Position numbers: made by a program. A DNA stretch of 42,486 bases from a virus (Duplodnaviria > Heunggongvirae > Uroviricota > Caudoviricetes), in IMG/VR virus record IMGVR_UViG_2522572023_000003. One strand, 5' to 3'. Below, piece by piece: positions 9,001-15,000 of the stretch. How positions within the stretch are numbered: position 1 is the first letter of the stretch; every line of letters begins with the position of its first letter.

Positions 9001-12000
9001 TTCAAGCACGCGTATCGTCAGCAATACCAATATTACTTTGCAGATAAACAAATGTCTGCCAGGGGTTCGTATGAGTATCGATGCACTACGATGGGCTAAA
9101 AAGGTGAAAACCGGCAGTTCATCCAGTAAGTCAGTATTGACCTGGCTTGCTGATATGTGCGGTGCCGATTTGTGTGCATACCCGTCTGTATCTGCCCTGG
9201 CAGAAGTAACGGAACTGAACAAAAAGACTGTGCAGGACAGCTTACGACACCTGATGGAGATTGGGTTAATTGTTGATACCGGTGAGAGAAAAGGCAGAAC
9301 AAAGCAAATTGTGGTGTACCGACTTATCGGTGTAGAAGAAAGTGTTGCCGAGCCTGAATACACCCAAAAACGGGAGTCTTTAAAGGTGGGTAAAATTAGT
9401 GCTGTTAATAAAAACAGTACCGAAAATGGTTATGTTTCAGCACAAAACAGACCCAAAAACGGAACTCTTAACTGCATGGAAAATAACCAAAGACACCCAA
9501 ATTTTCCATCAAAGACACCCAAAAACGGATCACGGAACCCAAAGGAACCCAAAGATCTAACCCCCACACATAACGCACGCGAGAGTGCTCCGACCAGTGA
9601 GCAGGAAGTTTTGTCGTTACAGGCAGCACCCCCTGTATTCCTGGATGGCCTGAGCGAACCCATCGGAAAATTTCCGATGACCGAGAGCTGGTATCCGTCA
9701 CGGGATTTTCGACGACGGGCTGCGTTGTGGGGGATGGCTTTGCCGGAGACAGAATTTACACCTGCTGAACTTGCCGCCTTCCGGGACTACTGGGCAGCGG
9801 AGGGGAAAGTATTTACGCAGATTCAGTGGGAGCAGAAATTCGCCCGTCACGTAAATCACGTCAGGGCGCAGGTTAAACCAGTCAGCAAGGGGGTGAACCA
9901 TGCAGCAGCACCAGGTGGCACCGCATCACGGGCAGTTCAGGAAATTCGGGCAGCACGTGAGCAGTGGGAACGTGAAAACGGATTTATCAGCGACGGAAAC
10001 GGCCTGGAAGCTGTGGGAACTCATGGGGGAGGTTTATTCGAACCGCTGGACCCAGAAGAACGGGGCCGCACCATCGAAGCTCTGGATTGCACAGATTGGC
10101 GCGATGACTGAGCAGCAAATCCGGCAGGTCTGCCGCCAGTGCATGGACCGCTGCCGGGCGGGTGAAACATGGCCTCCGGACCTGGCTGAGTTTGTGGCAC
10201 TGATTTCGAAAAGCGGAGCCAATCCATTCGGTCTGACGGTGGATGCTGTGATGGAGGAGTACCGCCGCTGGCGCAATGAGTCCTGGCGATACGACGGAAG
10301 TGATAAGTACCCGTGGTCTCAGCCTGTGCTGTATCACATTTGCCTCGAGATGCGTTCAAAGGGGATTGAGCGCCAGATGACCGAAGGGGAATTAAAACGG
10401 CTTGCAGAACGGCAACTGACGAAATGGGCAAAGCATGTTAGTAACGGCCTGAGTGTTCCGCCAGTCCGGCGACAACTGGCGGCCCCCAAACGCCCGTCGG
10501 GGCCAACGCCAATTGAGTTGCTGAAACAGGAATATGAACGCCGGAAAGCGGCTGGTTTTGTATGAATTGTGAAGGTGATATTTCAGGAGGGCTTGTGGCA
10601 AGACCTTACACACAAGAAGAGCGGGAAAAGCTGAAGGCGGACATTGTAGCTTTCGTGCGTATGAGTGGGCGGGCAACGCTTCAGCAACTGGCGAATGAAA
10701 CGGGCGTTGCCATGCGTACTGTTCGGTGTTTATGTGGAAGCCTTGCTGGCAGTGGAGATATCTGGCTATCTGGTTACGGGGTGTTTTCATCAGAGCAGGC
10801 GCGTAAAGACTGGCAAAACGCCCGCAAAAAACTTTCAAGGGCAAAGGCGAAGAAACCGGTTGTAGTTGATCCGGACCTTATCTGGTCGTTACCAGACGGA
10901 GAAATACGCCGATACGACAGGCGTCAGAACATAATCTGTCGCGAGTGCCGGAAGAGTGAAGCTATGCAGCGTGTACTGGCTTTCTATCAGGGTAATTTTC
11001 ATGAGACGGTACTGTGAGTGAAATTAGCTATCAGGCTTCAATTACCGCTGGCATTCGCATCAAAGGAGAGGAGCATGGAAATAAAACCAGAAGATGAGTT
11101 AAGCAATATCGTTTTATTTCCGGTAAAAGAGGATGACCCACGTAATCAGGTTAATTTTCTCTATGAGCCATCGGAAAGACCATATTGCCATCACGCCTCT
11201 GTCCGGGTTGACGAAAAAGAGCGTCAGGTCCGCTGTAAAATCTGCGGTGCAGTTGTGGAGCCATTTGACTGGATGCTCTCTGTGGCGAAAAGAGAAACCA
11301 GACTGGCAGATGATGTAAGGATCTTGCGCCAGGAGGAACGGGAAAGGCGGAGAAATATAGAAAAGCTAATTCAGATTGAGCGTAACGTGAAAGCGCGGAT
11401 ACGCAGGGTGACAAAATCCAGAACTGAATAATTAAATTTAGCTCTGTTAAAAATTTAATCCTTAACCGGAGGTATATCAATGTCAAACGCACAGAAAGTT
11501 ATTAACGCTGAAAAATATAACGAGTGGGTGAAAAAGTTCTCAGAGCAGATTTTTAAAATTACTGGCGACGAGAATGCGGCAAAAAATGAATTAGAGCCGT
11601 GGACACCTGAAGGTGTCGACCCAAATTATTGCTGGTGGGATGTTGATCCAGTTGATGCTGCAAATGAAGCTATGAGTTATCACAACGATTAATGTCAGGA
11701 GGCCGCCCGAAAGGGCGGTAATGAAAAGTGACTGAATTAACCAAAGAGAAATTAATCGAAGAAGCCAAATTAAAAATAGCGATTGCGAAATGCTACCCCA
11801 ATTCAGGGATGGCACGGGTAGAGGGCGAGTTATTCAAAATTGCACTGGCATCGCTGGAAGCAGAACCAATAGGTGCTTTCCACATTGTAGAACAGCAAGT
11901 TGACGGAACAAGTTACTATATCAAGGATGGGGAATGGCCTATTGATACTGGGATTATTGAAGTCTACGCCGCCTCACCGATGACGGTAGTGCTGAACGAT

Positions 12001-15000
12001 GTATCTGGACCTCTTGCTCTTGCTTACAAAGAGCTTACACCTGCGATTATGCGCAACCATATCGCTGTATTCGAACGATACGGAATAACCCCAAACGATA
12101 GCATTACTACAATTCATGCGCTTCGAATTGCGCTGGATGGCATAGAGCGGAGCGACGCCATGCTTCATGGACGTCAGCCATGCCATCAAATTACCGCCTC
12201 AATGGCAAAAGCTATTGCGCTTAAACTTGGTGCCGAACTGAATAACGAAGAAGCAGAGATTTTCGCGGATGGGTATAACACCGCCATGCTTCATGCCGAA
12301 AACTTTCGGGAAAATAAGAATTCGTCAACCAATAATTTTCGGATAACCTCGGAAACGTCAACCAACTCTCCGGCAATCCCTGATGAGGTGTTGTCCGCAA
12401 TCCTGAAGGTCGCCAGGGTTCGTGCAGATTTCGATGCTTCTGAAGGTGACAGGCGAGGTATCGGTGGTTGTCTGGATGAGGCCGAGCAAGAACTTATCGT
12501 TACCATTAACAAATACGCCAGTCAGATCGCAGTAGAAGCGATACAGGGGGCGCACCAATGAGCCGGCCCGATGCATTTGCAGGCGTTGCTATAGCTATTG
12601 CTTTTCTAGTATATGTTATTTGTCGGTGGGGGTAAAAACGTTCGCCGGAATTCACACCAAGGGAGGGAATATGTCGGATGATATTTCACTGGTAATGGAA
12701 GGCGCTCTGGCTGTTATTGCTGTTGTGGGTGTTTACTGCCTGGTTGTGTTTTTGATGGATCGCCTGGGGAACTGAATTCATTCCGTATGGGAATTCCCAT
12801 ATCGGGCAAAAACGGTTTGCTGTAAAGCGAGAGTTAAGTAGAATTGCTGCGGGTGCTTGAGGCTGTCTGCCTCGGGCATGCCGCCGTAAGGCAGACAGAG
12901 AAAAGCCCCAGTTAACATTACGCGTCCGGCAAGACGCTTAACATTAATCTGAGGCCATATCTATGCGACACATAGAGATTAGCCTCTTACGGACCGAAAG
13001 GTCAAGGAGAAGCAGGCTATGAAGCAGCAAAAGGCGATGTTAATCGCTCTGATCGTCATCTGTTTAACCGTCATAGTGACAGCACTGGTAACGAGGAAAG
13101 ACCTCTGCGAGGTGCGAATCCGAACCGGCCAGACGGAGGTCGCTGTCTTCACAGTCTACGAACCTGAGGAGTAAGAGACCAGGCGGGGGAGAAATCCCTC
13201 GCCACCTCTGATGTGTCAGGCATCCTCAACGCACCCGCACTTAACCCGCTTCGGCGGGTTTTTTGTTGTGCAGCGTAGTTGATTAGCTTTTTGTGTACTC
13301 CTTTGGTTGTGGTTCTTGAGGGGCCGTTTGGAGTAAATAGAATCATATTACTTAGTTAGCGCGCAGGGAGAAGAGGGAGGGACCCCGAACAGGGGAGTGC
13401 TATTTATCTGGAAGGATTCTGTTGATGAAAATCGAAGAATTACGTGAAATTTTTAGTGAAGATGGCCTCTACAGCGCGCGTTGAGAATGGCGCTATTGTC
13501 AGCCACTGCCGTATTAAATGTTTACAGTCTCAACAAGGGAAGAGTGGAGCTGCGTTAATTTACTTTGTGGATGGACTTGTGACGGATGGTTTTATTTTGC
13601 GTGAAAATGAATTTGTCACATCATTGCAGTCTCTGAAAGAAGCTGGGCTTAAGGCTGGTTTTTCTGCTTTTGAAGATGAGTGAATTCATCTACAATTCAG
13701 CGCAGGACTGAACCCCTGTTGAGTAACACTGTGCCACCGGAGAAAGCCGATGGCGCAAAATTCCAGATCACACAATTCTGATAATTCAGCCGTCTTTGCC
13801 AGCAGGCACGGGCGGCGCTCTCACGCATTTAAATCTGATTGGTACCAGCATCCCCCATGCACTGAAGAACAGGCCGAATGGCTGATTCAGTGTTACCGCA
13901 GGTGCGGATACGAGGTTAAGAAAGCCCTCAGTCTCGATTATCGTCACTGGATAATCTCTGTCAGGCTTCCTTATTCCGAACGCCCACCGCGTCCGTCCCG
14001 CACATTCCAGCAACGCATCTGGAGGTAACGTGCGGGTATTACTTCGACCTGTTCTGGTACCGGAACTCGGGCTGGTGGTCCTTAAGCCCGGTCGTGAATC
14101 ATTGCCAGTTTTTCATCGCGGCAGGGTGCTGGTGGAGCCGGAACCGAAAAACATGCGGGCGCTGCCATCTGGAGCGGTTCCTACTGTTCGCCAGCCGCTG
14201 GCGGAAGATAAATCACTGCTGCCATTTTTCAGCGATGAGCGGGTGATTCGTGCAGCTGGCGGCGCTGGTGCACTGTCTGACTGGTTATTACGTCACGTGA
14301 AATCCTGCCAGTGGCCACACGGCGATTATCATCACAGCGAAACCGTTATTCACAGTTACGGTGCTGGCGCAATGGTGTTGTGCTGGCACTGCGACAACCA
14401 GCTGCGCGACCAGACCTCCGAATCACTTGAGCAACTTACTCAACAAAATCTGACAGCCTGGATGATTGACGTCATACGCCATGTAATGAATGGCACGCAG
14501 GAGCGGGAATTATCGCTGGCTGAATTATCCTGGTGGGCAGTCTGCAATCAGGTGGTGGACGCATTACCTGAGGCAGTATCGCGTCGTTCTCTGGGATTAC
14601 CGGCGGAAAAAATCCGCTCCGTATACCGTGAAAGCGACATCATACCGGGAGAACAGACCGCCACCAGCATACTGAAGCAGCGCACAAAAAATATTGCGCT
14701 ACCGTCTCACACCCACCAGCAACAGAACCCACCACAGGAAAAGACGGTGGTCAGCATTGCCGTTGATCCGGAGTCTCCGGAATCCTTCATGAAACGACCT
14801 AAACGTCGCCGCTGGGTAAATGAGAAATACACACGCTGGGTAAAGACACAGCCGTGTGCGTGTTGTGGTAAGCCAGCGGACGATCCTCATCATCTGATTG
14901 GTCATGGTCAGGGTGGAATGGGAACAAAATCCCACGATATTTTCACGCTACCGCTGTGTCGGGAGCATCACAACGAGCTTCATGCGGATCCGCTGGCGTT

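Follow-up and report, generated by a model that had tools for sequence, protein, structure and literature searches.

A variable gene block between the replication genes and hok of a defective Escherichia coli prophage: probably an ordinary mosaic of common prophage families, with two small membrane peptides

The IMG/VR virus record IMGVR_UViG_2522572023_000003 (Caudoviricetes), 42,486 nucleotides (nt) long and called the window here, carries a block of six small open reading frames (ORFs) on the plus strand between its replication genes and hok. A sequence-only reading had placed all six ORFs correctly (Table 1), had seen no nameable motif in the four larger products (151, 118, 70 and 277 amino acids, aa), and had proposed the block as the best candidate for an undescribed function, conjecturally a defence, toxin or abortive-infection module in which a large soluble protein is joined by small membrane peptides. 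We consider, with a probability of about 80%, that the block is an ordinary ren/nin-like mosaic of common, catalogued and uncharacterised E. coli prophage genes and not one system. The genes have indeed no described function; their families, however, are catalogued and very common in prophages, which is in part the outcome that the earlier reading had named as refuting it.

The 2.2-kb block was found at 100% identity in a chromosomal prophage of E. coli O145:H28 RM12761/RM13516, adjoined in RM12761 by potABCD. The left arm of this prophage is Qin-like (ydfABC, dicB), and the right arm runs in the order Cro/CI, YdaT, DnaT-like replisome organiser, lambda-P-like gene, block, hokD, DUF968, RusA and Q-type antiterminator. 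In RefSeq the integrase is a pseudogene with an internal stop (window 1-1119, locus L001:1440-2558), and several neighbouring genes are pseudogenes as well. An element of the insertion sequence 3 (IS3) family splits a Rha-family regulator gene near dicB and ydfABC (window 4847-6060, L001:6286-7499). The Qin-like left arm, the broken integrase, the IS3 element in the Rha gene and the right-arm gene set identify the window as a defective Rac/Qin-type lambdoid prophage of E. coli. Judged by gene order, the block occupies the ren/nin-equivalent slot between the replication genes and Q, and all its genes are co-oriented with both.

Table 1. Features of the block and of the adjoining hok/sok locus, in window coordinates.
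Feature	Position	Strand	Basis
DUF977 / Ren-like protein (YdaW/LygF family)	10562..11017	+	Pfam, PHROG, RefSeq WP_025380330.1
Scar of deleted Ead/Ea22-like gene	11014..11074	+	Local alignment to intact gene
118-aa protein with zinc ribbon and long basic C-terminal helix, phrog_1621	11075..11431	+	PHROG, alignment, AlphaFold2
70-aa acidic protein, phrog_4659	11480..11692	+	PHROG, homologue list
Module junction: AGGAGG, hairpin and 9-nt spacer before GTG	11697..11727	+	Recurrence across loci
277-aa Eaa/'DUF551-family' modular protein without DUF551 domain	11728..12561 (GTG start)	+	Homologues, protein and DNA alignments
25-aa single-pass membrane peptide, 27-aa family (MxWPEAF...VYxICRWG)	12558..12635	+	Conservation, codon statistics, ATGA coupling
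34-aa single-pass membrane peptide, WP_001278459.1, hypothetical	12671..12775	+	RefSeq coding sequence, codon statistics
hok/sok (hokD-type) type I toxin-antitoxin	12851..13174	+	Rfam sok RF01794, RefSeq hokD

All four larger proteins fell into known families. The first ORF, taken earlier for a 151-aa protein without a recognisable motif, matched PF06163 (DUF977, a domain of unknown function) with 106.8 bits against a cutoff of 22.1 (E 1e-30), covering model positions 2-133 of 134. It also matched phrog_142, 'Ren-like exclusion protein', at 3e-39, and RefSeq names it a DUF977 family protein. The ORF is present as described, while its start is probably GTG 10595, giving 140 aa instead of 151, because this codon follows AGGAGG by 4 nt and is where both the Pfam model and the RefSeq protein begin. 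The C-terminal motif NIICRECRKSEAMQRVLAFY is identical to lambda Ren at 12 of 20 residues (E 4e-7), with the common pattern N(I/L)(I/V)x(R/K)ECR(K/Q)SxAM(Q/K)RVLA(F/V)Y; lambda Ren itself has no PF06163 match, and only this 20-residue motif is common to both proteins. The P-like gene (PF06992) ends at 10565, so that the ATG at 10562 overlaps its stop, and in the lambda counterpart P ends at 40283 and ren starts at 40280. Escape from Rex exclusion is the defining phenotype of lambda ren. Sequence and profile searches of the Protein Data Bank (PDB) with the 140-aa protein gave nothing meaningful, and in the literature search DUF977 was named only in an unrelated survey of Fic/Doc protein domains, with nothing functional on lygF.

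The stretch between the first ORF and the 118-aa gene, previously regarded as intergenic, is the scar of an Ead/Ea22-like gene, deleted except for ~23 nt at its start and ~30 nt at its end. In local alignment, the intact 249-aa Ead_Ea22 gene of locus L025 matched 20/23 nt of the 5' remnant and ~32/34 nt of the 3' remnant with the junction. The retained 3' part holds the ribosome-binding site (RBS) of the 118-aa gene. Relatives carry an Ea22-like gene or its remnant at this position, and none of the six ORFs of the block matched the Ead_Ea22 model (PF13935).

The 118-aa protein, also said to lack a motif, matched phrog_1621 at 1.7e-54 and contains a CxH...CxxC zinc ribbon whose residues C38, H40, C54 and C57 are almost invariant from Escherichia to Yersinia, Erwinia and Morganella. 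A C-terminal helix (LRQEExxRRQNIEKLIQIERNAKARIRR) is conserved in the family, and homologues were found in Escherichia, Salmonella, Kluyvera, Erwinia, Pluralibacter, Yersinia and Morganella. The AlphaFold2 (AF2) model, with a predicted local distance difference test score (pLDDT) of 73, showed the zinc-ribbon beta-hairpin at residues 43-54 and a 55-residue helix at 63-117. When this model was compared with the PDB by Foldseek, the sole resemblance was to the TFIIB zinc ribbon and was not significant (E 0.2); PDB sequence and profile searches gave nothing meaningful. In two proteins (P0204 and P0241) a 118-aa-type protein is fused to an Ea22-like N-terminus. The 70-aa protein is acidic (isoelectric point 4.4) and matched phrog_4659 at 3.7e-50. 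All of its 120 homologues came from Escherichia or Shigella and were named hypothetical, and no relative was found in the PDB. NCBIfam had nothing for the block proteins.

The largest protein, of 277 aa, is a member of the Eaa/'DUF551 domain-containing' family and not a protein without a nameable motif. It had 6,589 homologues, most of them with PF04448, which are named 'DUF551 domain-containing protein' or 'Eaa protein' by NCBI, and many family members were 54-92% identical to it over 80-98% of its length. Protein and family have in common an N-terminal helical hairpin (…IALASLEAEP), an IGAFHIVEQQVDG... module, a near-invariant linker GNFRENKNSSTNNFREISETST and a PxIPxEVLSAILK...INKYASQ module; the N-terminal, linker and internal modules recur in hundreds of DUF551 proteins. 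The PHROG matches were likewise modular (residues 1-90, 66-152 and 184-273). Pfam gave no match to the 277-aa ORF at E < 1, neither PF04448 nor PF13935, and in the alignments the whole DUF551 domain (…PDGWISCSERMP…HWMPLPEPP…) is deleted in frame. The end codons CAG GGG GCG CAC CAA TGA (QGAHQ*) correspond to the normal gene end CAG GAG GTG CGC CAA TGA (QEVRQ*). A second, diverged allele with a DUF551-less end (…INEYASQIAVEATQGENQ*) lies behind different N-terminal modules, and the sequences therefore argue that the DUF551-less form is an established allele, which persisted and recombined, and not a fresh lesion. RefSeq annotates only 12274-12561, as a partial DUF551-family pseudogene; an identical 277-aa coding sequence is annotated as intact elsewhere (P0001), and the pseudogene label thus masks an intact DUF551-less allele. 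The AF2 model from a 63-sequence alignment was poor (mean pLDDT 46), only the helical hairpin at residues 1-44 being confident, and PDB sequence and profile searches with the 277-aa protein gave nothing meaningful. The 'large soluble protein' of the supposed special arrangement is a truncated family member without its own promoter or terminator.

The GAAA-tetraloop hairpin reported in front of this gene was found at 11703-11718 (CCGCCC-GAAA-GGGCGG, fold z-score -2.9), directly after AGGAGG at 11697-11702. No other copy occurs in the window, where chance would give 0.01 matches. In the fetched loci, 59 exact copies of the junction occurred in 16 left/right gene contexts, and the start codon was always 6-9 nt past the stem. 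The junction element, CAGGAG(G/A)-CCGCCCGAAAGGGCGG-TA…, stands in front of at least four unrelated genes; copies were seen in L003:4132, L017, L026, L029, L043, L082 and other loci. The hairpin sequence is invariant among all copies, leaving no covariation to score. In one relative the identical MTELTKE… start is ATG and not GTG, which supports the GTG start at 11728. An intrinsic terminator was ruled out for the hairpin, as there is no T-tract.

The genes of the block were found to assort independently, and the idea of a travelling unit did not hold; in the samples examined, co-occurrence of the six genes was not far above expectation. The whole block was present at coverage of at least 80% in 11 of 5,426 complete E. 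coli genomes, while pieces of it were present in 3,861. Complete copies of the zinc-ribbon/70-aa gene pair were counted in 476 genomes, against 25 with the 277-aa allele and 672 with the two-peptide segment (window 12545-12775), which has a median of two copies and up to five. This segment was found in none of 50,697 deposited phage genomes, which suggests that the prophages carrying it are of types seldom recovered as free phage. The slot proved variable, as had been claimed for a nin-equivalent position: among ~120 IMG/VR loci with the 34-aa ORF we counted 50 architectures, and the distance from DUF977/P to the 34-aa ORF ranged from 758 to 3,993 nt. The cargo included Eaa/DUF551, Ead_Ea22, DUF4406, DUF1627, DUF4752, DUF4014, ClpX-type zinc finger, DUF7167 and helix-turn-helix (HTH) proteins and a DNA methyltransferase. 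Directly after DUF977, genes open with the Ea22 start and its 3' junction.

The conjecture of defence genes was not borne out, since none of the six proteins matched a PADLOC model (PADLOC-DB v2, a release dating from 2023; best E-value 0.02, over short stretches). In the slot cargo of 95 related loci the only strong PADLOC match was the methyltransferase, three other models matching weakly and being of HTH type. There was no sign of toxicity or abortive infection. A consensus scan of the block revealed no excess of promoters or terminators, and no terminator inside the block.

The two peptides at the right end are genuine small inner-membrane proteins. Both are strongly hydrophobic (grand average of hydropathy 1.24 and 1.40), as had been observed, and each forms a single hydrophobic helix of 17-19 residues. 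The 25-aa ORF overlaps the stop of the 277-aa gene, with its ATG in ATGA, and the 34-aa ORF has a strong RBS (Shine-Dalgarno GGGAGGG at 12661-12667), both as described before. The 25-aa form of the window differs by an in-frame 6-nt deletion from the 27-aa type A, represented by MNWPEAFAITGVAMAIAFLVYVICRWG and MIWPEAFAITGVAIAIDFLVYVICRWG. A diverged type B, MTWPEA(F/L)TTVGIAMAVALVVYSICRWG, was found in loci fetched through hokD. Types A and B differ at 28 of 84 nt, distributed 7/5/16 over the codon positions. The proportion of synonymous differences (pS) between them was 0.58-0.78 and that of nonsynonymous differences (pN) 0.22-0.28, and pS exceeded pN in the called frame only: for the 27-aa family pS/pN was 0.64/0.25 in frame, and 0.34/0.35 and 0.24/0.38 out of frame. 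Polymorphic sites in the 34-aa ORF were distributed 6/1/9 over the codon positions. Its diverged homologue (M)VLVLKCALAIAAVMAIYCLAVVLMDRLSD differs at 23-28 of 78 nt (codon positions 10/4/13), with pS of 0.45-0.64 and pN of 0.26-0.31; the pS/pN of the family was 0.64/0.26 in frame, and 0.43/0.28 and 0.32/0.34 out of frame. Because pS exceeds pN in a frame-specific manner between diverged homologues, the frame is kept and the indel is in frame, these codon statistics mark the 25-aa and 34-aa ORFs as real genes under purifying selection. Two of the related loci examined had a disrupted copy of the 25/27-aa ORF. The 25-aa ORF is conserved downstream of intact DUF551 genes, which ruled out a frame-shifted DUF551 remnant as its origin.

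The coupling of the smaller peptide to the gene before it was general to the family and not specific to the 277-aa protein. All 106 unique contexts showed the ATGA overlap of its start with the stop before it, and in 101 of them the upstream ORF was at least 80 aa long and mostly of the Eaa/DUF551 family. Altogether 61 different proteins lay directly upstream. Thus the arrangement of a soluble protein with a coupled membrane peptide stood, and its restriction to this one gene did not. The last 18 nt of the upstream gene (…CAGGAGGTG(C/A)(G/A)(C/T)CAATGA) travel with the small ORF and include the Shine-Dalgarno of the peptide, and for this reason unrelated upstream proteins end in QEV(R/N)Q or EQEVNR. 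The EQEVNR end was found in 5 of the 106 contexts and is the end of a zinc-ribbon protein as in locus L181 (IMGVR_UViG_2718218098_000005). In that locus the coupled partner of the 27-aa peptide is a 132-aa zinc-ribbon/coiled-coil protein, which ends in EQEVNR*, is not of the Eaa family and has the CxH…CxxC and NAKAR motifs of the 118-aa protein of the window.

Both peptide families are narrow. The 25/27-aa ORF was unannotated in the RefSeq records examined, including that of the window, and was called only a handful of times in a collection of 15 billion proteins. A scan of 185,579 species representatives of the Genome Taxonomy Database with the 27-aa pattern returned matches only in E. coli and Shigella flexneri. 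For the 34-aa peptide, HMMER found only seven near-identical matches among 1.84 billion representatives, and hence no deep family. The peptide sequences were mentioned nowhere in the literature searched. The components of the block are otherwise already known as database families, and these small genes kept by selection, one of them usually left unannotated, are a modestly new feature and the only part that goes beyond existing annotation. With ~12% of complete E. coli genomes carrying about two copies each, the 25-27-aa gene is a candidate for small-protein catalogues.

The hok/sok locus next to the peptides is bona fide, with an Rfam sok match (RF01794) of 105.9 bits against a gathering score of 59, and a terminator-like site follows hok at 13243-13260. 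A weak match to IsrK, a Salmonella prophage small RNA in Rfam, was seen at 13183-13264 (30.5 bits, below the gathering score of 50; E 8e-4) and overlies the 3' end of hok and its strong terminator. Farther right, between hokD and a rem-like 92-aa ORF, window 13425-13711 (L001:14864-15150) is a frameshifted hypothetical gene in RefSeq, of which a 79-aa ORF at 13444-13683 is a remnant. Hok/sok lay within 700 nt in 80% of 115 contexts of the 27-aa ORF; in the other 20% other sequences followed, including several terminator-like hairpins. As ATGA was found in 106/106 contexts and hok in 80%, it is the upstream gene and not hok that constantly accompanies the 27-aa peptide. The reverse view from hokD was obtained from 77 loci with enough upstream sequence, for which the tallies are approximate. 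Both peptides lay upstream in 6 loci, only the 27-aa type in ~18, only the 34-aa type in ~17, diverged versions of both in 2 (L127 and L175), an unrelated 59-aa two-helix ORF in ~12, and none of these in ~21. In ~70% of the sampled loci, hokD had some small hydrophobic ORF no more than 500 nt upstream. The 59-aa ORF has two hydrophobic stretches (MKNALQFLFVAFWLFASCMPIIFTARYMEKIDVLILMFGHINALFLGVFMAVMCIEYWR) and lies ~440 nt upstream of hok in L163, L153, L159, L126 and others. The locus sample as a whole is biased, having been fetched via the 34-aa ORF, hok or the 27-aa ORF.

An imperfect direct repeat brackets the 34-aa cassette, AAAAACGTTCGCC at 12634-12646 and AAAAACGGTTTGC at 12808-12820, and where a prophage has no 34-aa gene, AAACGGTTTGCGGG and the hok promoter region come straight after the stop of the 27-aa ORF, so that the cassette resembles an insertion of ~174 nt.

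An ordinary mosaic of this kind would be read, from left to right, as a Ren-like DUF977 gene, an Ea22 scar, a zinc-ribbon/coiled-coil gene, a small acidic gene, an Eaa-family gene minus DUF551, the 25-aa and 34-aa peptide genes, and hok/sok. The genes are co-oriented, and none has a convincing promoter or terminator; read-through from the early-right promoter on derepression would therefore transcribe them, like lambda ren-nin. Prophages would swap modules at short conserved junctions, namely the AGGAGG-hairpin, the start and end of Ea22, and ...QEV(R/N)Q-ATGA, and the DUF551 domain of the Eaa-family gene was lost by an in-frame deletion. The 25-aa peptide would be translated by coupling to the 277-aa stop, and the 34-aa peptide would be separately initiated. 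Lambda Ren, Ea22 and the exo-xis/nin genes provide an analogy by which the soluble products most likely modulate host physiology or phage development in a non-essential way. Some points weigh against a plain mosaic. The literature searched gave no function for any of the six products, and the proposed modulator role comes by analogy; early-right transcription is suggested by orientation and a crude consensus scan; and a PADLOC release of 2023 cannot exclude undescribed defence functions. Moreover, the invariant coupling of the peptide to Eaa-family genes and the frequent adjacency of hok/sok hint at some functional linkage. If the mosaic reading is right, a false lead is removed, the slot resembling a defence island being filled with common, independently shuffling prophage families.

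That linkage is taken furthest by the view that an Eaa-family gene works at the inner membrane together with its coupled 25/27-aa peptide as one functional module, of which the 34-aa peptide may be a third part. The peptide could then tether or partner the soluble protein, and superinfection exclusion, abortive infection or modulation of Hok would be possible roles. The unbroken ATGA coupling to mostly Eaa/DUF551 genes, the purifying selection on both peptides, the recurrence of the order 27-aa, 34-aa-like and hok in diverged form (L127 and L175), the presence of hok/sok near the 27-aa ORF in most of its contexts and that of some small hydrophobic ORF just before most hokD loci speak for such a module. 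We nevertheless regard it as unlikely. The C-terminal module of the upstream partner varies freely, up to the EQEVNR end; a fifth of the contexts have no hok, and many hok loci have neither peptide; no defence model was matched; and the ascertainment of loci is biased. In addition, the soluble partner in the window has lost its effector-like domain, and the absence from deposited phage genomes ties the module to resident, often cryptic prophages. On whether the parts travel together the picture is mixed: the 27-aa peptide is always coupled to some gene before it, usually one of the Eaa family, while the 277-aa allele is found in 25 genomes against 672 for the peptides, and the 34-aa gene and hok behave as dispensable neighbours. 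The most novel form, in which the coupled 25/27-aa peptide, often with the 34-aa peptide and hok/sok, is the conserved core and the Eaa proteins are interchangeable soluble 'heads' that it brings to the inner membrane or regulates there, appears improbable too. If true, it would be a prophage membrane module specific to Escherichia and not described before, perhaps serving superinfection exclusion or the control of Hok-type killing. And if the coupled peptide partners Eaa/Ea22-type proteins, a large lambdoid 'dark matter' family would for the first time become accessible through it.

It is similarly improbable that the block is largely decaying junk in a dead prophage, with the 277-aa ORF a pseudogene and the small ORFs unexpressed. 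The prophage is certainly defective, with its stopped integrase, IS3 insertion and neighbouring pseudogenes; two internal deletions lie inside the block, and the AF2 model of the 277-aa product is poor. However, every ORF is intact, and both peptides are under frame-specific purifying selection. The DUF551-less end occurs in two diverged alleles behind different N-terminal modules and so has persisted and recombined, the 118-aa family is conserved across genera, and other records annotate the identical 277-aa coding sequence as intact. Least probable is that one or both peptides are type I toxin-like membrane poisons and the right end of the block a small-toxin cluster: the single helix, the length of 25-34 aa, the adjoining hok/sok and a minus-strand promoter-like site inside the 25-aa ORF (12636 down to 12608) would fit, but sok is the sole antisense RNA family matched, promoter-like sites are at chance level (6 found, 3.6 +/- 1.9 expected), there is no minus-strand terminator nearby, the messenger RNA (mRNA) surrounding the 34-aa ORF has no more stable fold than shuffled sequences (z -0.84), no known toxin family is similar, and the exposed strong Shine-Dalgarno of the 34-aa ORF and the coupling of the 25-aa ORF to a long gene are unlike tightly repressed type I toxins.

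Compared with known systems, the peptides resemble Hok only as small single-pass hydrophobic peptides, and they differ from it in having no sequence similarity, antisense RNA, structured mRNA or mok-like overlapping frame. Split (discontinuous) ribosome-binding sites are known for T4 genes 38 and 25. The hairpin junction may, by analogy, be a portable split ribosome-binding site, or else a recombination junction. Here a stable tetraloop hairpin of 16 nt separates AGGAGG from the start codon 25 nt away, and the folded hairpin would bring the effective spacing to 9 nt, as in the T4 type; unlike that type, the 3' arm GGGCGG could be an occluded weak Shine-Dalgarno, or the element could merely be a recombination junction. 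The Ea22 and Ead/Eaa 'DUF551' proteins are described as early proteins of mosaic build whose C-terminal domains are portable; lambda Ea22 promotes lysogeny, and oxidative-stress tolerance is affected by YfdS, a DUF551 protein of CPS-53 (Goddard et al. 2024, PMC10834534; PMC4776307). The 277-aa protein is like them in the shared N-terminal helical segment followed by interchangeable C-terminal domains, and would be like them in being early, non-essential and possibly host-directed; its gene lies in the early-right region, whereas Ea22-type genes lie in the exo-xis (early-left) region. The closest likeness in slot and orientation is to the lambda ren-nin region (P, ren, ninA-I, Q), which also leads from the replication genes to the Q antiterminator. 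None of the NinB-NinI families occurs in the block, the counterpart of lambda ren being its Ren-like gene, and the prophage has DUF968 and RusA further right; unlike lambda, the region has a hok/sok locus and small membrane peptides interposed. Both regions are tightly packed, with overlapping stops and starts, and both are non-essential and mosaic.

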